NCBI GenBank assembly: GCA_045546615.1
Contig: JAZQDD010000013.1
Span: forward strand, 2,879-66,878
Direction: 5' to 3'
Source: Eubacteriales bacterium
GTDB taxonomy: Bacteria > Bacillota > Clostridia > Oscillospirales > CAG-272
DNA length: 64,000 bases
Shown here: positions 16,637 to 40,904 of the stretch, piece after piece
How positions within the stretch are numbered: position 1 is the stretch's first letter
Layout of the letters: each line of letters opens with the position of its first letter
Made by a program: the position numbers and the translations under genes
The notes under the pieces: model-generated
The model's input: the letters and a program-made list of their open reading frames with translations, nothing else
Databases searched by the model: none
Told to the model about the DNA's origin: nothing

Positions 16637-18331
16637 TTACTCAACAGTATCGGTTATTTCCTCGACAGGAGCATCATCTATGGGGTCTTCCTCGACAGGA
16701 GCATCATCTACGGGAACTTCTTCTATAGGTGCTTCCTCGGTGGGGACTTCTTCGGAAGATGCATCTTCGGCAGGAACTTCTTCGTCGATGTTTTCTTCAA
16801 TAGGAACTTCTTCAAAAGGAACTTCCAAAACGGGGGCGGCATCAATAGCGGCAGGTGTTGAAACCGAAGCCTCGCTTGCTGTCTTGGCGGCTACAACAGC
16901 GGCGGCAGTAGCGGCGGCAACAGTCGCGGCAACCGTGGTAGCGGTGTCCACAGCCTGCTGTACGCTATCCACTATGCGGTTAGCTTTTTCAAGCTCCTCA
17001 TCGGGAGTGGGGGCGGTGCAGGTAAGTATCTCGAGACATTCAAGCGGCTCAAGCTGGGGACAAAGCTTTTTGCCCAAAACTCGCATAAGGACTTCCGCAA
17101 CAATAAATACCAGCATTCCTGCAATAAGCATATATGCATAAATTTGCCCATCACCGAGATCAATAAATGGAACGGAGATGGAAGAAGTCAAGTTTTCAAG
17201 GGAGAGAAGCATGGGAATGCAAGCAAATATCAAGCCAATGACGGCGGGGCAAATAAATGTAGGAATCTTCGCCTTTCTGTCGTTTACACCGCAAGCAATA
17301 CGGGATAACAACAATGGGAAATAATTGATGCCAAGCAGTCCAACTACAAGCCCCACGATGTATACTGCCAAAATTGCAATGAACGAAACGAGCGCGGAAT
17401 CTGATGTCTCGACAAACGCAAGAATGGGCTCTCTTATCAATGCGGGATATCCGATCTTCAATACAGAGTAAAGTGCAAGTACCGCACCCGCAAGCGAAAC
17501 GAGAGATGTCAGTTGAGCGATCAAGCGATATTTTCTCTTTTCGGGCGAAGTGGGGGTGAGCCACGCAAGAGCCGTAAGGAGAGCGATACAAACTATGTAA
17601 CACGCATACAATACTTTCCAGCCCGAACCTGCGCCGAATTGAGGGAAGAGAAGTTGCAAAATGGGCAGGGCGAGAGCGTATGTTGCGGCAGACATAACCG
17701 AATAAACAATCGGGTATTCGCTTTTTCTGAGGTGTGTGATGTTAACAATGGCTCTTATGAGGATTACAAGCGAATAAATGGGGAGTGCAAACACTGCCAA
17801 TATTAACCAAACAACAGCGAAAAGAAGCTGGATAAGCGGTGTGGATTGGAGCAGTACCGAAACGGCAGAACCGTAGTCCTTGTAGCTTTCAGCATCTGCA
17901 GGAGTAGGGAGTACCATTTCTGCGGCTGAAATGATAAACAGACAGTAATCGCGCTTTCCCTCGTCCTCGAAGCTTGAGAGATCACGTTCATCCTTGGGGG
18001 TGATATCTGGCATTTCGGGTGTCGTTCCCGAAGGAATCGCGAAGAAATAATCGTTCATCGCGCAATAATCTGAATAAAGGCTAAAGGTGTTGGGGATCTC
18101 AAAAAGCATAAGAATAAAATCCGTAAGTGAAAATTCGTACGTATCGGGTGCTTTTTTGATCTCGTCATCCATTTCGATAAATTCGACGAATTCATCAACA
18201 CCGTCAGTAACGCTTGAGGCGTCAAAGGTGAAGATCGGAGTAAAGAAGCACGAAAGGAGAGCCGCGAGCATGATGATGCTGACAAGCACTCTGAATTTAG
18301 AGACTATCTCTCTTTTGGTAGCTTGAGTCAT
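16637..18331 (-). CDS. polytopic membrane protein with Ala/Thr-rich and acidic decapeptide-repeat C-terminal tail
   Basis: 564 aa with GGAGG RBS and at least 8 hydrophobic helices. The C-terminus reads ...LEVPFEEVPIEENIDEEVPAEDASSEEVPTEEAPIEEVPVDDAPVEEDPIDDAPVEE. I recognise no family. Confidence 0.7.
   Translation of the reverse strand: MTQATKREIVSKFRVLVSIIMLAALLSCFFTPIFTFDASSVTDGVDEFVEFIEMDDEIKKAPDTYEFSLTDFILMLFEIPNTFSLYSDYCAMNDYFFAIPSGTTPEMPDITPKDERDLSSFEDEGKRDYCLFIISAAEMVLPTPADAESYKDYGSAVSVLLQSTPLIQLLFAVVWLILAVFALPIYSLVILIRAIVNITHLRKSEYPIVYSVMSAATYALALPILQLLFPQFGAGSGWKVLYACYIVCIALLTALAWLTPTSPEKRKYRLIAQLTSLVSLAGAVLALYSVLKIGYPALIREPILAFVETSDSALVSFIAILAVYIVGLVVGLLGINYFPLLLSRIACGVNDRKAKIPTFICPAVIGLIFACIPMLLSLENLTSSISVPFIDLGDGQIYAYMLIAGMLVFIVAEVLMRVLGKKLCPQLEPLECLEILTCTAPTPDEELEKANRIVDSVQQAVDTATTVAATVAAATAAAVVAAKTASEASVSTPAAIDAAPVLEVPFEEVPIEENIDEEVPAEDASSEEVPTEEAPIEEVPVDDAPVEEDPIDDAPVEEITDTVE
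16655..16830 (-). repeat. about 30-bp periodic tandem repeats inside CDS encoding acidic decapeptide repeats
   Basis: 16661-16690 and 16691-16720 are 27/30 identical (CTCGACAGGAGCATCATCTA...CTTC). Degenerate copies ending in ACTTC continue to about 16826. Confidence 0.8.
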
Positions 18332-27225: not shown

Positions 27226-27422
27226 TATTTTTTATCCTTATAATAAAGCTTGCAGTGGCAGTAGCCCTCAAAATTCGGATCTGCAATCTGCTCTCTGAAT
27301 TCTTTGCATAGACATTTATTGTCCTCGGTCATCTCAAGGCGGCAGGGGCAATATCCGCCTCGTGCCTTGAGTCCTTCTTTAATTATTTTTACTATTTCTT
27401 TATCCTCGTTCAATCTTACCAT
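27225..27422 (-). CDS. minimal ferredoxin-thioredoxin-reductase catalytic-subunit-like protein
   Basis: 65 aa carrying the three CxC motifs of the FTR catalytic chain: CPCR, CLC, CHC. Its ATG overlaps the thioredoxin stop (TGATG); an alternative GTG lies at 27425. Confidence 0.65.
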   Translation of the reverse strand: MVRLNEDKEIVKIIKEGLKARGGYCPCRLEMTEDNKCLCKEFREQIADPNFEGYCHCKLYYKDKK

Positions 27423-27730
27423 CACAAAAACCTCTCTATGATCTCTTCTATTTCTTCTTTGCTAAGTACGCCCGTAGTACGATGTACCTCAACGCCGCCT
27501 TTGATGAAAAGAAGTGTAGGGATAAGGCTTATGCGGAATTTTATGGCAAGCGCACCTTCCTCGTCTACGTTGCATTTATATATATCAGCCGCCGATGATT
27601 CGGACAGCGCGTCTATAGTGGGGGCGAGCATTCTGCAAGGACCGCACCAAGGCGCCCAAAAATCTATTATGCATAGCTTGTCGCTTTTTTCTATTTGGTC
27701 AAATGTTGCACTTGTGATGTTTTTTGCCAT
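27422..27730 (-). CDS. trxA: thioredoxin
   Basis: FWAPWCGPCRMLAP active site. 102 aa. Confidence 0.9.
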   Translation of the reverse strand: MAKNITSATFDQIEKSDKLCIIDFWAPWCGPCRMLAPTIDALSESSAADIYKCNVDEEGALAIKFRISLIPTLLFIKGGVEVHRTTGVLSKEEIEEIIERFL

Positions 27731-27978: not shown

Positions 27979-27996
27979 TTGTTGAAATTTTAACAA
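27979..27996. promoter_or_regulatory. Rex-like operator (TTGTTGA-AATT-TTAACAA)
   Basis: 18-bp site, one mismatch from the clostridial Rex box TTGTTAA-N4-TTAACAA. It sits within a longer inverted repeat, ACGATTGTT (27975-27983) / AACAATCGT (27992-28000), and overlaps the -35 hexamer. Confidence 0.5.
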
Positions 27997-28010
27997 TCGT
28001 GTAGTATAAT
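27982..28010 (+). promoter_or_regulatory. promoter of the 13-gene yfcE-mdh-fumC-hdr-flx-frd-transporter operon
   Basis: TTGAAA 27982-27987, 17 nt, TATAAT 28005-28010. The ATG at 28059 is preceded by GGAGATG. Confidence 0.55.
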
Positions 28011-28058: not shown

Positions 28059-28625
28059 ATGAAGTGGCTTATCGCATCGGACATTCACGGTTCTGCATAT
28101 TGGTGTAAAAAGCTCGTTGAGGCGTACAAGCGCGAAGGGGCAGACAGATTGCTTTTGCTTGGCGACGTGCTGTATCACGGTCCACGCAACGATCTTCCGC
28201 GCGACTACGACCCCAAGGCTGTTATTTCAATGCTCAATCCCCTCGCATCGGAGATAGTCTGTGTCAGGGGCAATTGCGAGAGCGAGGTAGATGCCATGGT
28301 GCTTGATTTCCCCGTGCTTGCCGACTACGCCATCATCTGCGAGGAGGCATTGGGTAAAAATCTCATTTTTGCAACACACGGGCATCTTTTTAATGCATCA
28401 AAGCTCCCGCCGCTCAATCACGGAGACATTTTGATACACGGACACACACATGTGCCGTGCTTTGAACAAACCAACGGTATTACTATTCTCAATCCCGGAT
28501 CTGTGTCTATTCCCAAGGAGGGAAGTGAGCATAGTTACCTTGTGCTTAACGGCGCTGTTTTCACAAGACGCTCTCTTGATGGAGACATTTTGTCGGTACA
28601 CAGCTTTATTAAAACTAAAAAGTGA
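28059..28625 (+). CDS. YfcE-type metallophosphoesterase (MJ0936 family phosphodiesterase)
   Basis: Metallophosphatase motifs SDIHG, LLGDVLYHGPRN, GNCE, GHTH. First gene of the long operon. Confidence 0.8.
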   Translation: MKWLIASDIHGSAYWCKKLVEAYKREGADRLLLLGDVLYHGPRNDLPRDYDPKAVISMLNPLASEIVCVRGNCESEVDAMVLDFPVLADYAIICEEALGKNLIFATHGHLFNASKLPPLNHGDILIHGHTHVPCFEQTNGITILNPGSVSIPKEGSEHSYLVLNGAVFTRRSLDGDILSVHSFIKTKK

Positions 28626-28635
28626 GGTCTGATCG

Positions 28636-29580
28636 ATGAATAAGATCACCATAATCGGCACTGGCAACGTTGGCTCGACTATTGCCTACACAATAGCCCT
28701 TACGGGCATTGCGTCGGAGATAATTATGATAGACGTCAATCACGAAAAGGCACTCGGCGAGGCACTCGACATCAGACAGGGAACGCCCTTTTTGTCGTCC
28801 TGCTCTATCTACGCGGGAAACTATCGCGATGCCGCAGACTCAAGTATTGTTATTTTCACCTGCGGAGTGGCAAGAAAGCCGGGACAGACAAGGCTTGATC
28901 TTGCGCAGGTCAATGTAAATATCCTGAAGAGCATTATTCCGCAGATAACAAAATATGCTCCAAAGGCTAAATACCTTATCGTAAGCAATCCCGTTGACAT
29001 TCTTACCTACACCTTCTGCAAGCTATCCGACCTGCCAAACAGACGCATAATAGGTTCAGGAACTATCCTTGACACCTCCAGATTGCGCGCAAGGCTGTCG
29101 GAGTATTACTCCATAAACCAAAAAAACGTTCATGCATACGTTATGGGTGAGCATGGAGATTCAGCATTCATCCCGTGGTCACTCGCTAATATATCGAACG
29201 TCCCCATTCGCGAATGTCATAAATCCATCTCTATCGGCGGCGAGCTTGTTCCCGAGCCTAATTACGCGGAGATAGAGGATTACGTCAGAAAGTCGGGAGC
29301 GCGCGTCATCGAACGCAAGGGCGCAACGTTTTTTGCAGTTTCCGCGTCCGTTGTGCATCTTTGCAGATGCTTGCTCGGCGGAACTGACACGATCACTACC
29401 GTGTCGACCATGATGAACGGAGAGTACGGTATTGAGGACGTTTGCTTGAGCATACTGAACATCATCGGTTCTGCCGGTGCGCATTCAAAGATGTTAGCTC
29501 CGCTCAATTCAGAGGAGATAGGAAAGCTCCACAACAGTGCCGCCGTTCTTAAAGAAATTATTGCGGCACTTGAAATATAA
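28636..29580 (+). CDS. L-lactate/malate dehydrogenase family enzyme; Arg at the substrate-specificity position suggests malate dehydrogenase
   Basis: IIGTGNVGST Rossmann motif, catalytic GEHGDS. The loop GVARKPGQTRLDL has R (codon 28873-28875) where canonical LDH has Q102. Confidence 0.85.
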   Translation: MNKITIIGTGNVGSTIAYTIALTGIASEIIMIDVNHEKALGEALDIRQGTPFLSSCSIYAGNYRDAADSSIVIFTCGVARKPGQTRLDLAQVNVNILKSIIPQITKYAPKAKYLIVSNPVDILTYTFCKLSDLPNRRIIGSGTILDTSRLRARLSEYYSINQKNVHAYVMGEHGDSAFIPWSLANISNVPIRECHKSISIGGELVPEPNYAEIEDYVRKSGARVIERKGATFFAVSASVVHLCRCLLGGTDTITTVSTMMNGEYGIEDVCLSILNIIGSAGAHSKMLAPLNSEEIGKLHNSAAVLKEIIAALEI

Positions 29581-29606
29581 AATACAAAATTTTGGAGGTC
29601 AATATT

Positions 29607-30983
29607 ATGGAATACCGCATTGAACACGACTCTATGGGCGAAATGAAAGTTCCCGCCGACAAGCTTTGGGCGGCACAGACGCAGCGTAGCTGTGAGAATT
29701 TTCAGATAGGCGTGGGCATCGAAACGATGCCGCGAGAGATAGTCCATGCTTTTGGCATACTGAAAAAAGCCGCAGCACAGGCAAACCACGAGCTGAAGCC
29801 CGAAAAAATGACGGACGAAAAGCTCGCCGCCATCGAAAAGGCGTGCGACGAGGTCATTTCCGGTGAGCTCATTTCAAACTTCCCCCTCGTAGTATGGCAG
29901 ACCGGCTCGGGAACTCAATCCAATATGAACTCCAATGAGGTTATAGCCAACCGAGGCAATCAACTTGCCGGCAAGAAAATGCTCCATCCCAACGATGATA
30001 TAAATATGAGCCAATCCTCAAACGACACTTTCCCTACGGCAATGCACATTTCTGCCGTAATCGCCATAGAGGATAAGCTTATTCCCGCCGCAGAGACTCT
30101 CATCGCCACCTTCAAACGCCTTGAGGCGGAGAATGAGGGCGTTGTAAAGAGCGGACGTACGCATCTGCAGGATGCAACTCCCATCACCTTCCCGCAGGAG
30201 ATCTCCGGCTGGAGAAGCAGTATTGAGCGTGACGTTGAGCTGCTCAAACTTTCTCTCAAGCCTCTCAAGGAGCTTGCCCTCGGCGGCACTGCCGTAGGAA
30301 CGGGGCTTAACGCGCCTAAAGGTTTTGCAGAGCTTGTAGCAAGCAAGGTGTCCGCACTTACGGGTAAGGAGTTTGTTACTGCATCCAATAAATTCCATGC
30401 ACTCACCTCAAAGGACGAGATAGTTTTTGCACACGGCGCGATAAAGGCACTTGCGTGTGACCTTATGAAAATAGCAAATGACGTAAGATGGCTCGCATCA
30501 GGTCCTCGTGACGGTCTTGGCGAGATATTCATTCCCGAAAACGAGCCCGGCTCGTCCATTATGCCCGGTAAGGTCAACCCCACACAGTGTGAGGCGCTTA
30601 CCATGGTGGCAGTTCAGGTAATGGGCAATGACGTTGCCGTTGGTATGGCGGCATCGCAGGGTAATTTCGAGCTTAACGTATTTATGCCCGTATGTGCGTA
30701 TAATTTCCTGCAGTCCGCACGTCTGCTTGCTGAGGCTATCGTTTCCTTTGACAAGAACTGTGCATCGGGTATTAAGGCAAACCGCGAAAAGATGCACCAC
30801 AACCTGCACAATTCGCTTATGCTCGTCACCGCGCTTAACCCCTACATCGGATATGAGAACGCCGCAAAGACGGTGAAAAAAGCGTTCAAGGATAATATCT
30901 CTATCCGTCAGGCGTGTGTTGAACTCGGCTTTTTGACCGAGGAAAAATTCGACGAGGTATTCCATCCCGAAGAGATGGTATAA
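29607..30983 (+). CDS. fumC: class II fumarate hydratase
   Basis: ORF trimmed to MEYRIEHDSMGE (ATG 29607, GGAGG RBS). GSSIMPGKVNPTQCEA signature. TGSGTQSNMN. Confidence 0.95.
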   Translation: MEYRIEHDSMGEMKVPADKLWAAQTQRSCENFQIGVGIETMPREIVHAFGILKKAAAQANHELKPEKMTDEKLAAIEKACDEVISGELISNFPLVVWQTGSGTQSNMNSNEVIANRGNQLAGKKMLHPNDDINMSQSSNDTFPTAMHISAVIAIEDKLIPAAETLIATFKRLEAENEGVVKSGRTHLQDATPITFPQEISGWRSSIERDVELLKLSLKPLKELALGGTAVGTGLNAPKGFAELVASKVSALTGKEFVTASNKFHALTSKDEIVFAHGAIKALACDLMKIANDVRWLASGPRDGLGEIFIPENEPGSSIMPGKVNPTQCEALTMVAVQVMGNDVAVGMAASQGNFELNVFMPVCAYNFLQSARLLAEAIVSFDKNCASGIKANREKMHHNLHNSLMLVTALNPYIGYENAAKTVKKAFKDNISIRQACVELGFLTEEKFDEVFHPEEMV

Positions 30984-31004: not shown

Positions 31005-31814
31005 ATGAAGGTTAGCTATTTTCCGGGCTGTACCTTAAAAACAACGGCAAAAGAGCTTGACGTTTATACACGTGCCTCCGCTAAGGCACTTGGTGTCACG
31101 CTTGAGGAAATAGAAAATTGGCAATGCTGTGGCGGCGTGTTCACAACCGCCAATGACGAGATAGCAACAAAGCTGTCGTCCGTACGCGCACTCGTTGAGG
31201 CGAGAGATAAGGAGCAGGCGCTTGTCAGCGTTTGTTCCGCTTGCCATAACGTGATCAAGCAGACGAACCACGCAATGCAGACTGACGAGGGCTTTGCTTT
31301 GCGCGTAAACAATTATATGCGCATGCAGGATCCCGAGCATGCCGAATATCACGGCGAGACACGCGTTATGCATTTCCTTGAGCTGCTGCGCGATGAGGTA
31401 GGCTTTGACAAGGTCGCCGCCGCCGTTAAAAATTCGCTTAAGGGCAAAAAAATCGCCCCATATTACGGTTGCTTGCTTCTGCGCCCCGCCAAAACCATGC
31501 AAATGGATGACGTAGAGAATCCGAGAATAATCGAGGATCTTATACGCGCACTCGGCGCGGAGCCCGCCATTTACGCATACAGAAATGAATGTTGCGGCGG
31601 ATACGTTGCGCTTGATGATCCTGATGCTGCCGCGAAACAAAGCGGCAGAGTTCTTGAGGGGGCAAAGTCAGCGGGTGCAGATCTTATTGTGACCGCTTGC
31701 CCGCTTTGCCGATATAATCTTATAAAGAACGGTAAGAGCGATATTCCCGTAGTATATTTTACGGAGCTTCTTGCGGAGGCTCTCGGAGTTAAGGAGACAG
31801 AAAATGCGCAATAA
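31005..31814 (+). CDS. hdrB: HdrB-like subunit with two CCG cysteine-rich domains
   Basis: YFPGC...NWQCCGG...CSACHN and YYGC...NECCGG...CPLCRYN: two complete CCG motifs. Confidence 0.85.
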   Translation: MKVSYFPGCTLKTTAKELDVYTRASAKALGVTLEEIENWQCCGGVFTTANDEIATKLSSVRALVEARDKEQALVSVCSACHNVIKQTNHAMQTDEGFALRVNNYMRMQDPEHAEYHGETRVMHFLELLRDEVGFDKVAAAVKNSLKGKKIAPYYGCLLLRPAKTMQMDDVENPRIIEDLIRALGAEPAIYAYRNECCGGYVALDDPDAAAKQSGRVLEGAKSAGADLIVTACPLCRYNLIKNGKSDIPVVYFTELLAEALGVKETENAQ

Positions 31815-32193
31815 TGAAAACGTTACACAGCGCGTTCTCCGCATAAGCGGAGTCAACGCACGCCGTTGCATGAAATGCGGAAAATGCAGCGCAAGCTGTC
31901 CCTCGTACGATGAGATGGAGTATCATCCCCATCAGTTCGTATATATGATCGAAAGCGGAGATATAGAGCCTTTGTTGAATTCTACCTCTATCTATAAGTG
32001 CCTGACCTGCTTTGCGTGCGTGGATAGGTGTCCGCGCGGTGTTGAGCCTGCAAAGCTTGTTGAGGCGATAAGGCTTGAGGTCATAAGAGAGCAGGGAGCT
32101 AATCATCTGCGCGCGGATGATGTTCCCGCACTTGTCACGGACGGCGTACCTCAGCAGTTGCTGGTAAGCGCGTTCAGAAAATACGCGAAATAA
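31804..32193 (+). CDS. hdrC: HdrC-like 2x[4Fe-4S] ferredoxin subunit
   Basis: ORF trimmed to MRNNEN (ATG 31804, AAGGAGA RBS). CMKCGKCSASCP and CLTCFACVDRCP. 11-nt overlap with hdrB. Confidence 0.8.
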   Translation: MRNNENVTQRVLRISGVNARRCMKCGKCSASCPSYDEMEYHPHQFVYMIESGDIEPLLNSTSIYKCLTCFACVDRCPRGVEPAKLVEAIRLEVIREQGANHLRADDVPALVTDGVPQQLLVSAFRKYAK

Positions 32194-32210
32194 CGAAAGG
32201 AGAGAGCTAA

Positions 32211-34202
32211 ATGCCAAGAATTGGAGTATTCGTATGCTGGTGCGGCACTAATATTGCGGGCACGGTTGACGTAGCCGCGGTTGCCGAGGCTGTTAAAAAT
32301 GAGCAAGGCGTGGTTTTCTCCACCGATTACCAATATATGTGCTCGCAATCGGGACAGGACATAATCAAAAATGCTATCAGAAAGTATGATCTTACGGGTA
32401 TAGTTGTATGCTCCTGCTCGCCCCGAATGCATGAGGCGACTTTCCGCAAGACAGCATCCGCGGCAGGACTCAATCCATATATGGTTGAGATAGCAAATAT
32501 CCGTGAGCAATGCTCGTGGGTACATAAGGATATGCTTACGGGAACGCAAAAGGCGATAGTTCTTGCAAAGGCGGCTATCGCAAAGGTCAATCTTAACGCG
32601 CCTCTCACCCCCGGAGAGAGTCCTGTGACCAAGCGCGCCCTCGTTATCGGCGGCGGAATTGCAGGAATTCAGACGGCGCTTGATATAGCCGATGCGGGAT
32701 TCCCCGTGGATATCGTGGAGACAAAACCCACTATCGGCGGAAAGATGGCACAGCTCGACAAGACCTTCCCCACACTTGACTGCGCCGCTTGTATCCTGAC
32801 GCCTAAGATGGTCGATGCATCGCAGCACGAAAAGATTAGGGTTTTTGCGTATAGCGAGATAGATGAGGTCAAAGGCTTTGTCGGAAACTTCGACGTTAAG
32901 ATAAGAAGAAAAGCAAGATACGTAAAGGAAGAGCTTTGCACAGGTTGCGGTCTTTGTACCGAAAAATGCCCGCAAAAGAAAGTTCCCAACGAATTTAACA
33001 TGGGCATGGATAACCGCCGTGCTATCTACATTCCGTTTGCACAGGCAGTGCCGAAGGTTGCAACCATCGACGCGGATTACTGCACGATGCTCAAAACGGG
33101 CAAGTGCGGCGTATGTTCAAAGGTCTGTTCTGTGGGTGCTATTGACTATAAGCAGAAGGATGAGATCATTACTGAACGTTACGGCGCGATAGTTGCCGCA
33201 ACGGGCTTTAATCCCATTAGTATGGATAAATTTGATGAGTATGCGTACAGTCAGTCAAAGGACGTTATTACCTCTCTTGAGTTTGAACGTCTGACCAACG
33301 CCGCAGGCCCTACCGCAGGTAAGCTTCTGCGTCCCTCGGATGGAAAGCATCCTCACACCATAGTTTTTGTACAATGCGTAGGCTCTCGTTGCGCCGCCGC
33401 CGAAAAGGGCAAGGAGTATTGTTCCAAGATCTGCTGTATGTATACCGCAAAGCACGCAATGCTCGTGCGCGATAAATATCCCGATACCGAGGTGTATGTT
33501 TTCTATATCGATGTTCGTACCCCCGGCAAGAATTTCGACGAATTCTACCGCAGAGCCGTTGAGGAATATGGCGTACATTATATTAAAGGAATGGTGGGCA
33601 AGGTATCACCCGAGGGTGATGTACTAAAGGTTCAGGCGTCTGACCTTATTGCAAACAAGCAGCTTCATATTGATGCCGATCTCGTTGTACTTGCCGCCGC
33701 CATTGAGCCTGATAAGTCAGCAAGAAGCCTCGCTACGATGCTTACCGCATCTATGGACACGAACGATTTCTTTACCGAAGCTCACCCGAAGCTCCGTCCC
33801 GTGGAAAGCCCCACGGCAGGTGTATTTTTGTCGGGAGCGTGCCAAGGACCGAAGGATATTCCGGAAACGGTCTCGCAGGCGGGTGCCGCCGCTTCAAAGG
33901 TCATTGGACTTCTTGCCAAGGATAAGCTTATCGGTAACCCCTGCATTTCTCATTCCGATGAGATGATGTGTAACGGCTGTTCCTCTTGCGAGAGGGTGTG
34001 CCCATACGGTGCTATTACTTACGTTAACAAGGAATTCAGAATGCCCGACAGAACAACGCTCGTCCGCCGTGTCGCATCTGTCAACGAGGCAGTATGTCAG
34101 GGCTGTGGCGCTTGTACTGTGGCTTGTCCGTCGGGCGCTATGGATCTTCGCGGATTTACCGCACAGCAAATTATGTCGGAGGTGGATGCAATATGCAAGT
34201 AA
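32211..34202 (+). CDS. hdrA: HdrA-like FAD- and Fe-S-containing subunit
   Basis: 663 aa. FAD fold ALVIGGGIAGIQTALDIADAG. Ferredoxin motifs CTGCGLCTEKCP, CGVCSKVCS, CNGCSSCERVCP, CQGCGACTVACP. N-terminal CWCGTN...CSCSPR domain. Confidence 0.9.
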   Translation: MPRIGVFVCWCGTNIAGTVDVAAVAEAVKNEQGVVFSTDYQYMCSQSGQDIIKNAIRKYDLTGIVVCSCSPRMHEATFRKTASAAGLNPYMVEIANIREQCSWVHKDMLTGTQKAIVLAKAAIAKVNLNAPLTPGESPVTKRALVIGGGIAGIQTALDIADAGFPVDIVETKPTIGGKMAQLDKTFPTLDCAACILTPKMVDASQHEKIRVFAYSEIDEVKGFVGNFDVKIRRKARYVKEELCTGCGLCTEKCPQKKVPNEFNMGMDNRRAIYIPFAQAVPKVATIDADYCTMLKTGKCGVCSKVCSVGAIDYKQKDEIITERYGAIVAATGFNPISMDKFDEYAYSQSKDVITSLEFERLTNAAGPTAGKLLRPSDGKHPHTIVFVQCVGSRCAAAEKGKEYCSKICCMYTAKHAMLVRDKYPDTEVYVFYIDVRTPGKNFDEFYRRAVEEYGVHYIKGMVGKVSPEGDVLKVQASDLIANKQLHIDADLVVLAAAIEPDKSARSLATMLTASMDTNDFFTEAHPKLRPVESPTAGVFLSGACQGPKDIPETVSQAGAAASKVIGLLAKDKLIGNPCISHSDEMMCNGCSSCERVCPYGAITYVNKEFRMPDRTTLVRRVASVNEAVCQGCGACTVACPSGAMDLRGFTAQQIMSEVDAICK

Positions 34203-34627
34203 GTGAATACAAGCCCCTCATCGTTGCATTTTGTTGCAATTGGTGCTCCTATGCGGGCGCCGATCTTGCGGGTAACAACCGACTCAACTACCCCGCGGAG
34301 GTAAAGATCATCCGCGTGCCCTGCTCGTGCAGAGTTAATCCATCGTTTGTACTTCGTGCATTCCAGCGCGGAGCAGACGGCGTTATCATCTGCGGCTGTC
34401 ACCCCGGCGACTGCCACTATACCTCGGGTAACTATTATACCCGCCGCAGAATGGCGATGCTTTTCTCAATGCTTGAGTATCTCGGCATCGAGAAGGAGCG
34501 TACGCGCGTAGAATGGGTGTCTGCCGCGGAAGGGGCAAAATTTGCCGCCACAATGAATGATTTTGTCGAGACTGTGGCTTCTCTTGGCGAGAATAAAAGA
34601 TTGGAGGACCTCAGATGCAAGCGATAA
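34193..34627 (+). CDS. mvhD: MvhD/FlxD-like (methyl-viologen-reducing hydrogenase delta subunit family) protein
   Basis: ORF trimmed to MQVSEYKP (ATG 34193, GGAGGTGGA RBS). AFCCNWCSYAGADLAG...VPCSCRV...CGCHPGDCHY. 10-nt overlap with hdrA. Confidence 0.85.
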   Translation: MQVSEYKPLIVAFCCNWCSYAGADLAGNNRLNYPAEVKIIRVPCSCRVNPSFVLRAFQRGADGVIICGCHPGDCHYTSGNYYTRRRMAMLFSMLEYLGIEKERTRVEWVSAAEGAKFAATMNDFVETVASLGENKRLEDLRCKR

Positions 34628-35520
34628 GCAGTAAAACCCTCGTGGATATAGCCGCAAAAAAACTCGCGGACGGTGAGGTATCTGCCGTCCTCGGTTGGAA
34701 AAAAGGACTTTTCAATTACGATGTGACTCCTGCCGTGTTTACTAATGCGGATGAGCTTGCAGATGGCTTTGTTTATACCGATTTTTGTGCGGCAAATCTT
34801 TCAAAATATCTTGTAAATGAAACTAAAAAGCCGGAATATCGCTCCGACGATAGAAAAATTCTCGTTTTCTTGAAGCCTTGCGATACATATAGTTTTAACC
34901 AGCTTCTCACCGAGCATCGAATTCACAGAGACCGCGTTTGCGTTGTTGCAGTACCGTGCAACGGTATGATAGACCTCACGGGCGCACCGTATGAAAAATG
35001 CGTGAACTGCAAGAGTAAAAAGGCTGTTGTCTATGACGAGCTTGTGGGCGAAAACGGCGACGTTATCGACTCCAATCGTTTTGACGAGGTCGAACGCATT
35101 GAGGCTATGTCGTCTGATGAAAAATTTGAGTTTTGGCAGAACGAGCTTTCCCGTTGCATCAGGTGCAATGCCTGCCGCAACGTATGCCCCGCCTGCACAT
35201 GCGAAAAATGTGTTTTTGACAATCCCGCGTCGGGACTTGAAAACAAAGCGATATCGGACAGCTTTGAAGAAAAAATGTTCCACATCATCCGCGCGTTTCA
35301 CGTTGCGGGCAGATGCACGGACTGTGGTGAATGCTCAAGAGTGTGCCCACAGCACATTCCGCTTCACCTGCTTAACAGAAAGCTCATTAAGGATATGAAT
35401 GAGGCTTACGGCGAATATCAGGCAGGTGCTGTGGAGGGTAGCCGTGCGCCCCTCGTTGATTATTCCGTAAACGACATAGAGCCTGCAGAGGCTGTCGGAA
35501 AGGGAGGCAACAATGCGTAA
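34615..35520 (+). CDS. Fe-S protein, AsrA/HydB/FlxC-like (2x[4Fe-4S])
   Basis: CIRCNACRNVCPACTC and CTDCGECSRVCP. N-terminal FLKPCDTYSFNQLL region. 13-nt overlap with the upstream gene. GGAGGA RBS. Confidence 0.7.
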   Translation: MQAISSKTLVDIAAKKLADGEVSAVLGWKKGLFNYDVTPAVFTNADELADGFVYTDFCAANLSKYLVNETKKPEYRSDDRKILVFLKPCDTYSFNQLLTEHRIHRDRVCVVAVPCNGMIDLTGAPYEKCVNCKSKKAVVYDELVGENGDVIDSNRFDEVERIEAMSSDEKFEFWQNELSRCIRCNACRNVCPACTCEKCVFDNPASGLENKAISDSFEEKMFHIIRAFHVAGRCTDCGECSRVCPQHIPLHLLNRKLIKDMNEAYGEYQAGAVEGSRAPLVDYSVNDIEPAEAVGKGGNNA

Positions 35521-36538
35521 ATGTAACATAAATAAAATAGAGGAATTGTTTGCCGCCATTTCCGAAAAGGCAAGTCTTTACGTTCCCGTAGATACTGCAA
35601 AAACGGGCGCAAAATTTAAAAAATGGCAAAAGGGTGTTGAGCTTTCAAAGGCTCTTAACACCGCAAACAGCGTAAAGGATTTCTTCTTCCCGCAAAGCGA
35701 GAGCATTGTGGATTTTAAAATGGAAGGAAAAAATATCGAGGTAATCGATATTCGCAGCGAGAGCGAGGACTTTGTGCTTTTCGGTGTTCGCGCGTGTGAC
35801 GTCAAGAGCTTTGATATTCTTGACCGCGTTTTTCTTGCTGATACACCTGACAGCTATTATGCAAACCGCCGCGAGCATTGTACCGTCATTTCGCTCGCTT
35901 GCGCCAACCCCGGATACACCTGCTTTTGCTCGACGTTCGGCATAGATGCCGCAGAGCCCGGAGCGGATATTTCGGCATGGATGTGCGTTGATGCTTTGTA
36001 TCTGCAGGCGAATACAGAAAAGGGAAGTGCGCTCCTTGCGCGTGTTTCGGATGTCACCGAGGATGCGGACCCTGCCGCTGTTGAAGGCATGAAGGCTGTT
36101 ATCAGAGAGAAGATATCAAAACTTCCTTTGTCTGACCTCAAAGCCGATGCCTTTGGCGCTGACAAAACCAAAAAGTTTTTTGACTCTCCCGAATGGAAGT
36201 CGCTTTCCGAGTCCTGCCTTGGTTGCGGAACGTGTACCTTCGTTTGCCCCACTTGTCAATGCTATGACATAAAGGATTTTGATACGGGACATGGTATTAA
36301 GCGTTTCCGTTGCTGGGATTCTTGTATGTATTCGGATTTTACGAAGATGGCACACGGAAATCCCAGACTTACTCAAGTAGAGCGCTTCCGTCAGCGATTT
36401 ATGCATAAGCTCGTGTATTTCCCGAGCAACCACGACGGTATGTTCAGTTGCGTAGGATGCGGCAGATGTATTTCAAGCTGTCCTGTGTCGATGAACATCG
36501 TAAAAGTAATGAAATCACTTGGAGGTAAGGAAGAATGA
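35513..36538 (+). CDS. Fe-S protein, anaerobic-sulfite-reductase-subunit-A / sulfhydrogenase-beta / FlxB-like
   Basis: FGVRACDVKSF, CLGCGTCTFVCPTCQC, CVGCGRCISSCP. 8-nt overlap with the upstream gene. Confidence 0.7.
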   Translation: MRKCNINKIEELFAAISEKASLYVPVDTAKTGAKFKKWQKGVELSKALNTANSVKDFFFPQSESIVDFKMEGKNIEVIDIRSESEDFVLFGVRACDVKSFDILDRVFLADTPDSYYANRREHCTVISLACANPGYTCFCSTFGIDAAEPGADISAWMCVDALYLQANTEKGSALLARVSDVTEDADPAAVEGMKAVIREKISKLPLSDLKADAFGADKTKKFFDSPEWKSLSESCLGCGTCTFVCPTCQCYDIKDFDTGHGIKRFRCWDSCMYSDFTKMAHGNPRLTQVERFRQRFMHKLVYFPSNHDGMFSCVGCGRCISSCPVSMNIVKVMKSLGGKEE

Positions 36539-37368
36539 ACACAAGACAGGAAATGCTTATCCCAAGCGTAGGAGTCGTTACGGACGTAAGAATAGACACG
36601 CCCGACGTTAAGACCTTTCGTGTCGTAAATACAGACGGTAAAAAGCATTTTGAGCATATGCCGGGACAATGCGCTATGCTTTCCATCCCCGGCGTGGGTG
36701 AGGCTATGTTTTCGATCACGTCCTCACCGACAAATACCGAATTTATGGAATTTTCCATCAAAAAATGCGGTTGCCTTACCGAATGGCTTCATAGGCTCGA
36801 CGTCGGTCAGCAGATAACCATTCGCGGACCGTACGGCAACGCCTTCCCCGTAGACACGGAGTTTGTCGGCAAGGATCTGCTGTTTATCGCGGGCGGTATA
36901 GGACTTGCTCCTTTGCGCTCTGTTATAAATTACACACGCCACTACCGCGACAGATACGGAAAGATAGACATCGTATACGGTGCGCGCTCCAAGGAAGATC
37001 TCGTTGACTATAAGGAGATCGTAGGCGAATGGTGCGGAGACAGCGGTATTAATGTCCACCTCACGATCGATAATCCCCATGACGATTGGGATGGACACGT
37101 TGGATTTGTTCCGAATTACGTCAAGGAGCTTAATTTTTCCACAGATAAGACCGTTATTCTCTGCGGTCCGCCAATAATGATAAAATTTACGCTTGCGGGG
37201 CTTCTTGAGCAGGGCTTTGATAAAACGAGCGTATATACCACTCTTGAGCTTCGTATGAAGTGCGGCATCGGAAAATGCGGAAGATGCAACGTCGGCTCAA
37301 AATACGTCTGCAAGGACGGACCTGTTTTCCGTTTCGACGAAATTGACGAGCTTCCCGACGAGTATTGA
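36535..37368 (+). CDS. FAD/NAD(P)-binding oxidoreductase with C-terminal [2Fe-2S] (AsrB/PyrK/HydG/FlxA-like)
   Basis: FNR-like fold: MFSITSSP (FAD), LLFIAGGIGLAPL (NAD(P)). C-terminal CGIGKCGRCNVG cluster. ATGA overlap with the upstream gene. Confidence 0.8.
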   Translation: MNTRQEMLIPSVGVVTDVRIDTPDVKTFRVVNTDGKKHFEHMPGQCAMLSIPGVGEAMFSITSSPTNTEFMEFSIKKCGCLTEWLHRLDVGQQITIRGPYGNAFPVDTEFVGKDLLFIAGGIGLAPLRSVINYTRHYRDRYGKIDIVYGARSKEDLVDYKEIVGEWCGDSGINVHLTIDNPHDDWDGHVGFVPNYVKELNFSTDKTVILCGPPIMIKFTLAGLLEQGFDKTSVYTTLELRMKCGIGKCGRCNVGSKYVCKDGPVFRFDEIDELPDEY

Positions 37369-37385
37369 TAAAAGGAGAAACTCTT

Positions 37386-38060
37386 ATGCAAGAGACAGTA
37401 AGTATATATCTATTTGGAAAGAAATATGACGTTCCGTCCGACCTTACCATTATGTGTGCTATGGAGTATGCGGGATATCAGCTTGTGAGAGGCTGCGGAT
37501 GCCGTAACGGCTTTTGCGGCGCTTGTGCAACAATATACCGTATAAAGGGCGACAGAGACCTTAAGGTTTGTCTTGCCTGCAAAACGCAGGTAAAGGACGG
37601 TATGTATATCGCAACTCTGCCTTTCTTCCCGCTGGTAAAGCAGGTATACGATATAGAAAAGGTAAGCCCCACCGAGCAGATAATGATGCAGCTCTATCCC
37701 GAAATATACGCCTGCATTGGATGCAACGCCTGCACCAAGGCGTGCGCGCAAAAGCTCAACGTTATGCAGTATATAGCATACGCCCAGCGCGGTGAGTATG
37801 AAAAATGCGCCGAGGAGTCCTTTGACTGTGTTATGTGCGGTATTTGTTCATCTCGCTGTCCCGCAGGCATCTCCCATCCGCAGGTTGCGATGCTTGCTCG
37901 CAGACTTAACGGTAAGTATCTTGCGCCCGAATCCAAGCATCTCAAGAATAGGGTTATGGAGATAAAGGACGGCACTTTCGAGGAGCTTCTTGAATCTCTT
38001 ATGCAAAAGCCCATCGAGGAGATGAAAGAGCTTTACAATAACCGCGAGATAGAAAAGTAA
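37386..38060 (+). CDS. succinate dehydrogenase/fumarate reductase iron-sulfur subunit-like protein
   Basis: ORF trimmed to MQETVSIY (ATG 37386, AAGGAGA RBS). N-terminal 2Fe-2S CGCRNGFCGACATIY...C. CIGCNACTKAC and CVMCGICSSRCP clusters. Confidence 0.75.
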   Translation: MQETVSIYLFGKKYDVPSDLTIMCAMEYAGYQLVRGCGCRNGFCGACATIYRIKGDRDLKVCLACKTQVKDGMYIATLPFFPLVKQVYDIEKVSPTEQIMMQLYPEIYACIGCNACTKACAQKLNVMQYIAYAQRGEYEKCAEESFDCVMCGICSSRCPAGISHPQVAMLARRLNGKYLAPESKHLKNRVMEIKDGTFEELLESLMQKPIEEMKELYNNREIEK

Positions 38061-38073
38061 GGAGGTAGCGACA

Positions 38074-39669
38074 ATGTATTCCGAAAAATTTACAGCATCC
38101 ATTGCGGCAGTCGAGGCGGCACGCGAGGCAAATATAGCCTACGAGCCTGCCCGAATGAGCGCCAAGGAAAAGGAAGAGCTTCTTGCCGCATACCACCCAG
38201 ACTATAAAAAGAGTGAGTTCGTTGCGCTCAAAGTTGGCGCAAATAAGGGTGACATAGTTCCTCACGAGCTCGCAGAGACGCTTCAGGCGAATAGTCGTAT
38301 AAAGGCAGATGACGTGGATCTCGCTTCTCCCGCGTACGACGTTGACGTTCTCGTCATCGGCGGCGGCGGCGCGGGTACTTCTGCTGCTATCGAGGCGCAC
38401 AGAGCAGGAGCGAATACTATGATAGTAACCAAGCTCCGCATGGGCGATGCCAACACAATGATGGCAGAGGGCGGTATCCAAGCGGCTGATAAGCCCAACG
38501 ACTCGCCCGCGATTCATTATCTTGATGCTTTTGGCGGCGGACATTTTGCCGCAAAGCCCGAGCTTCTTTATAAGCTTGTAAACGATGCTCCCGAGTCGCT
38601 TTTGTGGCTCAATGAGCTTGGCGTTGAATTTGATAAGACCGAGGATGGTACGATGATCACCACCCACGGCGGCGGAACTTCAAGAAAGCGTATGCATGCG
38701 GCAAAGGACTACACGGGTGCGGAGATAATGCGCACGCTCCGCGACGAGGTGCTTAATAGCGGCATCACCGTTGTGGATTTTACGTCAGCCGTTGAGCTTA
38801 TTCTTGACGATGCAGGCAACGCCGCAGGCGCGGTTCTTATGAATATGGAAACGGGCGAGCTTATGGTGGCTCGCGCAAAGACCGTTATTATAGCAACGGG
38901 CGGCGCGGGAAGAATGCATTATCAAGGCTTCCCGACCTCTAACCACTACGGCGCTACCGCGGACGGACTTGTGCTTGGATATCGTGTAGGAGCAAAGCTC
39001 CTTTATGCGGACACCCTGCAGTATCACCCCACGGGTGCGGCGTACCCTTCGCAGATCTTTGGTGCGCTCGTTACCGAAAAGGTGCGTTCTCTCGGCGCGA
39101 AGCTTGTCAACGCGGACGGCAAGGTATTCATGCATCCGCTTGAAACTCGCGACGTAGCCGCCGCCTCCATCATTCGCGAATGCTCCGACAGGAAAAACGG
39201 AGTTGATACGGGAAACGGCACGGCTGTATGGCTTGACACACCCATGATCGAGAAGATAGGCGGAGAGGGAACTATCGAAAAGCGAATCCCTGCCATGATG
39301 CGTATGTTTGGCGAGTACGGCATTGATATTCGCAAAGAGCCTATACTCGTATATCCCACGCTTCATTATCAGAACGGCGGACTTGATATCAACGCTGACG
39401 GAATGACCACGGCGGTGAAGAATCTTTACGTTGCGGGTGAGGCTGTCGGCGGTATTCACGGCAGAAACCGTCTTATGGGTAACTCGCTTCTCGACATCAT
39501 CGTTTTCGGTAGAAGCGCAGGTAAGAATGCGGCAGCCAAGAGCCGCGAGGTGAATGTTGGCAAGCTCACCCTTGACCACATCGATGCATTTGCCAAGGAG
39601 TGCAAGGAGGCAGGCATCGTTACCGATGAGGTATCTCCCAAGCTCCTGCCCGACTACAGGCGCAAATAA
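38074..39669 (+). CDS. fumarate reductase/succinate dehydrogenase flavoprotein-family subunit (soluble type)
   Basis: DVLVIGGGGAGTSAAIEA dinucleotide fold, MAEGGIQAA, LQYHPTG, PTLHYQNGGL, VAGEAVGGIHGRNRLMGNSL. About 95-aa N-terminal extension. Confidence 0.8.
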   Translation: MYSEKFTASIAAVEAAREANIAYEPARMSAKEKEELLAAYHPDYKKSEFVALKVGANKGDIVPHELAETLQANSRIKADDVDLASPAYDVDVLVIGGGGAGTSAAIEAHRAGANTMIVTKLRMGDANTMMAEGGIQAADKPNDSPAIHYLDAFGGGHFAAKPELLYKLVNDAPESLLWLNELGVEFDKTEDGTMITTHGGGTSRKRMHAAKDYTGAEIMRTLRDEVLNSGITVVDFTSAVELILDDAGNAAGAVLMNMETGELMVARAKTVIIATGGAGRMHYQGFPTSNHYGATADGLVLGYRVGAKLLYADTLQYHPTGAAYPSQIFGALVTEKVRSLGAKLVNADGKVFMHPLETRDVAAASIIRECSDRKNGVDTGNGTAVWLDTPMIEKIGGEGTIEKRIPAMMRMFGEYGIDIRKEPILVYPTLHYQNGGLDINADGMTTAVKNLYVAGEAVGGIHGRNRLMGNSLLDIIVFGRSAGKNAAAKSREVNVGKLTLDHIDAFAKECKEAGIVTDEVSPKLLPDYRRK

Positions 39670-39683
39670 GGAGAATTTAGACA

Positions 39684-40904
39684 ATGAATCTTTTTGACGG
39701 ACTTGTTTCAATAAACGGAGTGACGTTCCTTTTGTTTTGTGTAATGGCTATTGCAGCCGTAGGCTATGCCCTCGGCAGAATAACCATAAAGGGCGTGTCG
39801 CTCGGCACTGCGGGAGTATTTATCGTGGCGCTCCTCTTCGGATGCTTTTTCCACGATGAGCTTTCCGCCCAGCTCGTGACTTCGGGCGCAAATTATACGG
39901 GCAGCGCACTTAAAATAGTTGAGTCTTTGGGACTTATCCTTTTTGTGACCGCAGTTGGATTTATCGCAGGCCCGAAATTCTTTGGAAATATGAAAAAGAA
40001 TTTCAAATCCTACGTTCTTCTCGGCCTCATTATCATAATCGCAGGTGGACTTGCCGCTATCGGTTGTATATACGTCGGAAGAATGATAGGCGGTGTTGGA
40101 AACGATTATCTGACCGCTATGATCGTCGGTCTGCTTTCAGGCTCGCTGACGTCAACCCCCGCATTTTCCGCGGCAAAGGATACCGTAGCCGCAGACCTCC
40201 AAAGTGTGGTTTCGGTAGGACACGGTATTGCCTACATCTTTGGCGTTATCGGAGTTGTACTTTTCGTTCAGCTTATGCCGAAGCTCACACGCGCCAACAT
40301 GGATGAAGAAAGAAAAAAACTCACTCAAGTTTCTGACGGAGAAGAAAAGAAGTATAGCGGAAAGCTCATAGAAATGGATCCGTTCGGATTTATGGTATTC
40401 GCGCTTGCCGCCGTTCTCGGTGTTTTTGTTGGAGCTATCAAGGTTCCCGGAACAACGTTTTCGCTTACCACTACCGGCGGATGCCTTCTCGTAGCGCTCA
40501 TTCTCGGACATTTCGGCAGAATCGGTAAAATAAGCCTTATGCCCAAGGAAACTACGCTCAAGGTTTTCCGTGAGCTTGGACTTATGCTGTTCCTTATAGG
40601 CGCAGGTATTGACGGTGGAGCGGAATTCGTTGCAAACTTTGACGTAATGTATTTTGTTTACGGCGTGTTTATGACCATAGTTCCGATGATCATCGGTTAT
40701 ATTTTTGCGAGATACGTGCTGAAGCTCAGCTTACTCAACAATCTCGGTTCTATCACGGGCGGAATGACGTCTACTCCCGCGCTTGGTACGCTTATTAACG
40801 TAGCCGGAACAGAGGATGTAGCATCCGCGTATGCGGCGACGTATCCCATCGCTCTTATATCCGTGGTACTCGTATCACAATTTTTAATAATTTTCTTCTC
40901 ATAA
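39684..40904 (+). CDS. AAE-family (aspartate:alanine exchanger / YidE-YbjL-SucE-like) transporter without TrkA-C domains
   Basis: Two internal repeats ending in GLLSGSLTSTPAF and SITGGMTSTPALG. N-terminal GRITIKGVSLGTAGVFIVALLFG. 406 aa. Confidence 0.75.
   Translation: MNLFDGLVSINGVTFLLFCVMAIAAVGYALGRITIKGVSLGTAGVFIVALLFGCFFHDELSAQLVTSGANYTGSALKIVESLGLILFVTAVGFIAGPKFFGNMKKNFKSYVLLGLIIIIAGGLAAIGCIYVGRMIGGVGNDYLTAMIVGLLSGSLTSTPAFSAAKDTVAADLQSVVSVGHGIAYIFGVIGVVLFVQLMPKLTRANMDEERKKLTQVSDGEEKKYSGKLIEMDPFGFMVFALAAVLGVFVGAIKVPGTTFSLTTTGGCLLVALILGHFGRIGKISLMPKETTLKVFRELGLMLFLIGAGIDGGAEFVANFDVMYFVYGVFMTIVPMIIGYIFARYVLKLSLLNNLGSITGGMTSTPALGTLINVAGTEDVASAYAATYPIALISVVLVSQFLIIFFS

Follow-up and report, generated by a model that had tools for sequence, protein, structure and literature searches.

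The nine-gene run and its Hdr-Flx subunits

The window analysed here is a 64,000-nucleotide stretch of contig JAZQDD010000013.1 (assembly GCA_045546615.1) from an uncultured ruminant-gut Clostridium, and its subject is a run of nine successive forward-strand genes between 31005 and 39669, confirmed in the list of open reading frames (ORFs) and their translations, in which Hdr-like and Flx-like electron-transfer genes lead into a pair of FrdB-like and FrdA-like genes (Table 1). Overlaps of 11, 10, 13, 8 and 4 nucleotides (nt) had been noted in an earlier interpretation made from the DNA alone (the sequence-only reading), and the ORF coordinates return the same values, together with gaps of 17, 17 and 13 nt. 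The frdB gene starts with an ATG at 37386, with AGGAG 8 nt 5' of it. The same-strand run extends beyond these nine genes, with an mdh-like gene and fumC upstream and an AspT/YidE-type transporter gene downstream, giving the full order mdh-like, class II fumarase, hdrB-hdrC-hdrA-mvhD, three Flx-like genes, frdB-frdA and AspT/YidE-type transporter. The lack of a membrane anchor, also pointed out earlier, holds in the ORF list and translations: neither frdC/D nor a cytochrome b gene is present in the run, nor would one fit, as its genes overlap or lie at most 17 nt apart. The only membrane protein found among the translations of the gene run is the permease, with no complex II anchor subunit.

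Every motif that had been quoted for these proteins recurs in the translations, namely NWQCCGG and NECCGG in the HdrB-like protein, two CxxCxxCxxxCP motifs in the HdrC-like protein, GGGIAGIQTALDIADAG and four Cys motifs in the HdrA-like protein, and CCNWCSY, CSCRV and CHPGDCHY in the MvhD-like protein, along with CxxCxxCxxxCPxCxC in both iron-sulfur (Fe-S) proteins, CGIGKCGRC in the FlxA-like protein, and YHPTG and HYQNGG in the FrdA-like protein. Searches with Pfam and NCBIfam profiles likewise uphold the assignment of all nine subunits with two refinements: FrdB is a distant relative of the FrdB family, and the first Fe-S protein is only weakly AsrA-like, its recognisable feature being a dicluster domain. 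HdrB contains two CCG domains (74 bits, Pfam) and scores almost equally with the HdrB and SdhE profiles (147 and 141 bits); it aligns end to end with the solved methanogen HdrB (E = 4e-36) and keeps ten of ten cluster-binding cysteines. HdrC matches a Fer4 dicluster domain with two [4Fe-4S] motifs, HdrA matches the HdrA2 profile over residues 3-662 (790 bits), and the MvhD-like protein matches FlpD (189.5 bits) as well as the C-terminal part of the HdrA2 profile. The second Fe-S protein scores 107 bits with Fer4_22 and 182 bits with ShyB, and the FlxA-like protein combines FAD_binding_6, NAD_binding_1 and DHODB_Fe-S_bind domains in the manner of the HydG/AsrB/PyrK type. The hallmark subunits of FlxABCD-HdrABC are all present, these being HdrA, HdrB, HdrC, FlxD, two Fe-S subunits and FlxA.

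Table 1. Genes and sites of the nine-gene run, followed by neighbouring features (FAD, flavin adenine dinucleotide; LDH, lactate dehydrogenase)
Feature	Position	Strand	Description
hdrB-like	31005-31814	+	HdrB-like subunit, two CCG domains
hdrC-like	31804-32193	+	HdrC-like subunit, two [4Fe-4S] motifs
hdrA-like	32211-34202	+	HdrA-like flavoprotein, four ferredoxin-type motifs; proposed bifurcation site
mvhD/flxD-like	34193-34627	+	[2Fe-2S] electron-entry subunit
first Fe-S gene (FlxC/FlxB-like)	34615-35520	+	dicluster domain
second Fe-S gene (FlxB/FlxC-like)	35513-36538	+	HydB/ShyB/AsrA type
flxA-like	36535-37368	+	FAD/NAD(P)H-binding, C-terminal [2Fe-2S] motif; proposed NAD(P)H entry point
frdB-like	37386-38060	+	small FrdB-like protein: N-terminal [2Fe-2S] domain, two CxxCxxCxxxC motifs
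frdA-like	38074-39669	+	FrdA-like flavoprotein, FAD_binding_2
promoter-like site TTGAAA-17-TATAAT	27982-28010	+	11/12 match, best forward-strand site in the region; consensus match alone
YfcE-family phosphodiesterase	28059-28625	+	PRK09453, 216 bits; first gene of the run
LDH-family dehydrogenase, predicted malate dehydrogenase	28636-29580	+	L-LDH profile passed; Arg in 'VARKPGQTR' loop
fumC, class II fumarate hydratase	29592-30983	+	TIGR00979, 705.5 bits (equivalog cutoff 664.75); malate to fumarate
AspT/YidE/YbjL-family permease, candidate succinate exporter	39684-40904	+	Asp-Al_Ex, 204.5 bits

The FrdA family and its gene neighbourhoods

The FrdB-like protein is a small protein of 224 residues composed of a Fer2_4 and a dicluster domain. 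A CCG domain was sought in it with Pfam and NCBIfam and is absent, the CCG domains of the window residing in the separate HdrB, and FrdB alone therefore cannot oxidise thiols. The FrdA-like protein bears FAD_binding_2 (234 bits) as its sole Pfam domain; it lacks the C-terminal domain Succ_DH_flav_C in Pfam searches and carries a conserved 88-residue N-terminal extension. An alignment of 62 family members from Clostridia, Archaea and Gammaproteobacteria shows an invariant HPD...G.N.G motif at the N-terminus. The residues of the dicarboxylate site are retained relative to FrdA/SdhA (HPTG, a Thr-Glu pair, the proton-donor Arg, HYxxGG and NRL), and H318, T334, R359, H431 and R466 are each invariant in the same alignment. 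Equally invariant is Asn127, which occupies the position of the covalent-FAD His of E. coli SdhA; this replacement would be expected of a low-potential flavin working in the reductase direction. By established flavin chemistry, an FrdA-type enzyme without the covalent-FAD His is more suited to reduction than to the oxidation of succinate. A structure model built on the 62-sequence alignment has a predicted local distance difference test (pLDDT) score of 88 and finds its best structural matches in SdhA/FrdA, superposing on E. coli FrdA with a template modelling (TM) score of 0.71 over about 448 residues; an earlier model from a 14-sequence alignment (pLDDT 58) was discarded.

Among profiles of known flavoproteins, FrdA is best matched by TfrA, with 336.8 bits against a cutoff of 718 and with positions 6-415 of 546 covered, and its identity to a true TfrA is 42%; the NadB profile, whose cutoff is 452.75, returns 266.8 bits. 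A neighbour-joining tree built from 43 sequences with NCBIfam labels, its support computed as bipartitions, separates NadB from all other sequences with 99.5% support and places FrdA outside it. The sequence-only reading had required a position apart from the L-aspartate oxidases, and this is borne out by the tree and by the choice of TfrA as best profile. An identity as L-aspartate oxidase is ruled out by that split, by the sub-cutoff NadB score and by the presence of an Fe-S partner subunit. A membrane-bound complex II was rejected as well, for want of an anchor gene and because the covalent-FAD His and the C-terminal domain are also absent, as was a genuine TfrAB, given that FrdA is not a full-length TfrA and FrdB has no fused CCG domains.

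The FrdA family with the N-terminal extension forms a clade, at 100% support, with a sister family of about 400 residues (P0154, P0170, P0172, P0181, P0182, P0184 and P0192), whose members have FAD_binding_2 only and lack both the N-terminal extension and the C-terminal domain. One further protein, P0122 (727 residues), is a natural FrdB-FrdA fusion, its residues 1-224 being FrdB-like (38% identity) and its residues 230-727 FrdA-like (57%).

The FrdA family is large, with at least 8000 matches below 1e-30, whose members bear names such as 'FAD-binding protein' or 'FAD-dependent oxidoreductase' and in some cases 'L-aspartate oxidase'. Scanned with one genome per species, the family has carriers in at least 589 species genomes, in almost all of which the gene is labelled 'FAD-binding protein' and nothing more, and the neighbourhoods of the best 80 of these at least 589 loci were examined. 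Their FrdA proteins are 78-97% identical to that of the window and come from metagenome-assembled genomes of gut and rumen Clostridia and from Yeguia hominis NSJ-40, the closest of the 80 being a sheep-rectum genome at 97%. In all 53 loci with enough upstream DNA (53/53), the nine genes are colinear on one strand, in agreement with the expectation that frdBA is kept beside hdr/flx, and such an arrangement is not one of chance. The class II fumarase gene adjoins hdrB in 48 of 50 related loci and mdh is found in 45 of 50; a permease homologue lies within 400 nt 3' of frdA in 52 of 75, which makes it a candidate succinate exporter. Across these loci MvhD is the most conserved protein (mean identity 90%), followed by HdrA (86%), and the product of the first Fe-S gene (34615-35520) is the least conserved of the operon (61%).

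At the level of 50%-identity clusters, the nearest FrdA cluster is archaeal, with members from Bathyarchaeota and Asgard, whose proteins are 53-59% (FrdA), 48-55% (FrdB), 40-52% (HdrA) and 34-40% (HdrB) identical to those of the window. Of seven archaeal loci read, six have hdrC-hdrB and hdrA beside frdBA. One Asgard locus reads hdrA-mvhD-mvhG-mvhA-hycI-hdrC-hdrB-frdB-frdA; two loci combine hdrC-hdrB-hdrA, a protein of about 1000 residues, mvhD, an FrhB-like gene and frdB-frdA; and in three others hdrC-hdrB-frdB-frdA adjoins an HdrA-MvhD fusion. The seventh locus, from a Bathyarchaeon, has malic enzyme and fumarase followed by frdB-frdA. Donor modules come and go beside an frdBA pair that keeps hdrCB and hdrA as neighbours, which points to a joint action of Hdr and FrdBA and is the strongest comparative evidence for it.

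Two details of the archaeal loci deserve mention. The Asgard hdrA that lies by mvhDGA-hdrCB-frdBA (L082, 2563-4590) can be aligned in a single frame through an in-frame stop near position 4143, which from the alignment probably encodes selenocysteine, a residue reported for Asgard Hdr-Mvh complexes. Between hdrA and mvhD, the FrhB-type clusters encode a partly HdrA-like product of about 1000 residues (L083, 4612-7611; L086, 4820-7753) that contains two Pyr_redox_2 regions and several Fe-S domains.

A third FrdA clade, 47% identical to the window protein and likewise furnished with the N-terminal HPDY extension, belongs to sulfur-oxidising Gammaproteobacteria, a tubeworm symbiont included. In the two loci read, from a Ridgeia symbiont (L088, 9354-12877) and Thiorhodococcus (L089, 9350-12890), frdBA is followed by a NuoF-like NADH-binding gene, and no hdr gene occurs within 10 kilobases. 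These proteins may constitute a different soluble NADH:fumarate reductase. In L088, frdBA is placed between mdh and a 2-oxoacid:ferredoxin oxidoreductase.

A proposed ferredoxin-reducing fumarate reductase

The presence of mdh-like, fumC, frdBA and permease genes in one run suggests a path from oxaloacetate through malate and fumarate to succinate and its export. The best reading of the locus from comparative evidence, and in our estimation the probable one, is a fermentative succinate operon that encodes an NAD(P)H-dependent, ferredoxin-reducing soluble fumarate reductase. Within this scheme we infer complex formation, the order of electron transfer, the bifurcation to ferredoxin, the choice between NADH and NADPH, and the export of succinate. 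The LDH-family dehydrogenase would convert oxaloacetate to malate, FumC would dehydrate malate to fumarate, a soluble and quinone-independent FrdBA complex would reduce fumarate to succinate, and the AspT-family permease would probably release the product from the cell. Electrons would enter at the FlxA-like flavoprotein through oxidation of NAD(P)H and would reach the FAD of HdrA by way of both Fe-S subunits and then the MvhD-like [2Fe-2S] protein. Here the electron pair would be split, with one electron passing uphill via the ferredoxin-type clusters of HdrA to ferredoxin (Fd) and the other downhill via HdrC, HdrB and FrdB to the non-covalent FAD of FrdA, at which fumarate would be reduced. 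The two non-cubane clusters of HdrB would act as a relay to FrdB, not in the reduction of a free disulfide. The net reaction would be 2 NAD(P)H + fumarate + Fd(ox) -> 2 NAD(P)+ + succinate + Fd(red), with ferredoxin written as a two-electron carrier. Ferredoxin potentials lie between -420 and -500 mV; with +33 mV for fumarate/succinate and -320 mV for NAD, we calculate about -33 to -49 kJ/mol fumarate for this reaction at ferredoxin potentials of -500 to -420 mV.

The scheme resembles that of butyryl-CoA dehydrogenase/EtfAB, in which NADH reduces an enoate-type acceptor near 0 mV together with ferredoxin, although the proteins are unrelated to those of the window and the bifurcating flavin is located in Etf. 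The genes of the Desulfovibrio system are reportedly ordered flxABCD-hdrABC, whereas those of the window run hdrBCA-flxDCBA. The seven subunit types themselves are the same as in FlxABCD-HdrABC of Desulfovibrio vulgaris (Ramos et al. 2015), for which the DsrC disulfide is the proposed high-potential acceptor; the window instead has FrdBA attached, and no DsrC-like gene is found among the translations of the operon. The HdrABC-MvhD core is held in common with the MvhADG-HdrABC complexes of methanogens (solved structures, e.g. 5odc and 8rvv), whose HdrB aligns with that of the window over its full length, but in the window an NAD(P)H module takes the place of the hydrogenase as donor, and fumarate, by way of FrdBA, that of CoM-S-S-CoB as proposed acceptor. 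An Asgard homologue has mvhDGA-hdrCB-frdBA and hdrA in one cluster. As for TfrAB of Methanothermobacter, TfrA is the top profile for FrdA of the window, and FrdB, HdrC and HdrB jointly cover the domain layout of TfrB. The window FrdA differs in its missing C-terminal domain and its N-terminal extension, the CCG domains are carried by a protein of their own, HdrB, and the electrons are proposed to come from HdrA and not from the CoM and CoB thiols.

The idea that such a module reduces fumarate is already in print for Pseudoclostridium thermosuccinogenes (Koendjbiharie & van Kranenburg, 2019 preprint; Koendjbiharie et al., BMC Microbiol 2020, PMC7282089), with a related proposal for tubeworm symbionts (mSphere 2019). 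The 'succinate operon' of P. thermosuccinogenes comprises fumarate hydratase, seven Flx-Hdr genes, two fumarate reductase genes and a putative succinate transporter; its genes were co-induced about four-fold under CO2 limitation, and the addition of H2 abolished succinate formation, which its authors read as a sign of ferredoxin coupling (PMC7282089). The window shares with that operon its printed layout as a co-directional cluster and the proposed ferredoxin-reducing fumarate reduction, the presumed orthology being drawn from the published description; P. thermosuccinogenes is a thermophile, while the window derives from a gut organism and includes an mdh-like gene. In tubeworm symbionts, Hdr-Flx has been proposed to feed a soluble 'thiol:fumarate reductase' (Rubin-Blum 2019; Mitchell 2024). 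That Hdr-Flx/tfrAB/korABCD cluster of the reductive tricarboxylic acid cycle contains an FrdA of the same N-extension family (47% identical) and embodies the same idea, but it serves autotrophic carbon fixation where the window would serve fermentation. A 2024 preprint remarks in passing on an 'unusual' association of HdrA with succinate dehydrogenase/fumarate reductase in Ruminococcus champanellensis, and the cytoplasmic fumarate reductase of Asgard archaea has been treated in papers on them as a CoM/CoB thiol enzyme. Within our literature searches, the statement of the sequence-only reading that no bacterial enzyme of this composition has been characterised biochemically stands. To the earlier proposals, the present analysis adds three features of the family and a definition: it delimits the FrdA variant, shows it to be spread very widely among gut and rumen Clostridia, and brings in a cross-domain hdrCB-frdBA unit with swappable donors as well as the FrdB-FrdA fusion.

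Several observations weigh against a ferredoxin-reducing fumarate reductase. The ten cysteines that make up a working disulfide-reducing site are all retained in HdrB, and a divergent thioredoxin gene lies upstream. The bacterial loci that share the nine-gene order come from closely related organisms (FrdA identity 78-97%); common descent accounts for part of their synteny, which demonstrates stability rather than many independent origins. The gammaproteobacterial frdBA genes, with their NuoF-like neighbour and no hdr, indicate that the FrdBA module can work without an adjacent Hdr, and literature searches found no biochemically characterised bifurcating fumarate reductase.

The first two of these features lend themselves to a system of two enzymes linked by a thiol, in which Flx-HdrABC would split the electrons of NAD(P)H between ferredoxin and a disulfide, of a small thiol or of a DsrC- or thioredoxin-like protein, and fumarate would reoxidise the thiol in the manner of the methanogen thiol:fumarate reductase. 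The thioredoxin gene in question lies just upstream on the opposite strand (27422-27730), divergent from the operon's promoter-like site, and could bear on a thiol intermediate or be a coincidence. Published models of Flx-Hdr and of Endoriftia also permit a DsrC-like carrier. We nonetheless regard a thiol link as unlikely: the operon has a single HdrB, FrdB has no CCG domain and no DsrC-like gene accompanies them, which would leave a thiol shuttle without an oxidising site at the Frd side, and the tight hdrC-hdrB-frdB-frdA adjacency in Archaea is better suited to direct contact. These considerations favour direct wiring of HdrB to FrdB.

The other serious rival is a non-bifurcating soluble NAD(P)H:fumarate reductase, where Hdr and Flx would be a mere wire to FrdBA and ferredoxin would not be reduced. 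Precedents include the five-subunit FrdABCDE of Hydrogenobacter thermophilus (Miura et al. 2008), which a review describes as a characterised cytoplasmic, quinone-independent, NADH-dependent fumarate reductase, with an FrdA homologous to that of the quinol-dependent enzymes and with no mention there of ferredoxin coupling. The gammaproteobacterial branch of the FrdA family, where a NuoF-like gene takes the place of Hdr, points in the same direction. The prospect is improbable to much the same degree as a thiol link, given that HdrA retains its full set of ferredoxin-type domains and is second only to MvhD in conservation, and that a simple wire would waste about 350 mV, an unusual extravagance for a fermenter. 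To our knowledge, HdrA is the bifurcating flavoprotein in all characterised HdrA complexes, and the suppression of succinate formation by H2 in P. thermosuccinogenes would also be at odds with a reaction that bypasses ferredoxin.

It is very improbable that FrdBA acts on another substrate (L-aspartate, urocanate or another enoate) or that the complex as a whole works backwards and oxidises succinate by confurcation: the uninformative family names, some of them 'L-aspartate oxidase', and NCBIfam scores that all fall below cutoff leave room for either, but the residues that bind C4-dicarboxylates are all invariant, fumC and mdh are adjacent in bacteria as fumarase and malic enzyme are in a Bathyarchaeon, NadB is excluded by the tree, and the loss of the covalent-FAD His speaks for reduction.

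If the ferredoxin-reducing fumarate reductase is real, fumarate reduction in quinone-free Clostridia would conserve energy as reduced ferredoxin, which could power Rnf or hydrogen production, and fumarate would be a new acceptor for electron bifurcation of the HdrA type. It would also account for a capacity to form succinate in gut and rumen Clostridia, a very large group; propionate formation and methane output depend in part on how succinate and hydrogen flow in the rumen and colon. For HdrABC of non-methanogens among Asgard and Bathyarchaeia, the archaeal versions would supply a concrete acceptor. With a little less than even confidence, we propose further that HdrABC-FrdBA may be an old modular family of Bacteria and Archaea with swappable donors, and would then be the main unrecognised route to succinate and energy in quinone-free gut Clostridia. 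Such a family would be marked by an FrdA that has the N-terminal 'HPDY' extension but lacks the C-terminal domain, by a small FrdB, and by an HdrB that relays electrons to FrdB and does not reduce a disulfide. In gut and rumen Clostridia the donor would be NAD(P)H, entering through Flx; in an Asgard archaeon it would be H2, entering through Mvh; and in other Archaea an FrhB-like module or an HdrA-MvhD fusion would serve. The existence of cultured carriers, Yeguia hominis NSJ-40 in the present survey and P. thermosuccinogenes in the literature, makes direct testing possible.

Flanking genes and minor observations

The dehydrogenase gene upstream of fumC passes the L-LDH profile, but its product has an Arg in the 'VARKPGQTR' specificity loop, a change known to turn lactate into malate dehydrogenases. 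The enzyme is predicted on this basis to interconvert oxaloacetate and malate in the direction of malate, and a label of L-lactate dehydrogenase would probably be wrong. The YfcE-family phosphodiesterase that opens the run is probably not part of the system; a YfcE match occurs in 2 of the 80 related loci, both times 3' of frdA, most loci ending before the region 5' of mdh.

Elsewhere in the window, a reverse-strand ORF of 564 residues (16637-18331) has no Pfam match at E <= 1e-8. A second promoter-like site is found 3' of the permease gene, and the permease itself is short: it has 406 residues where the full-length profiles have 553-562 positions, and its matches fall in both membrane halves.

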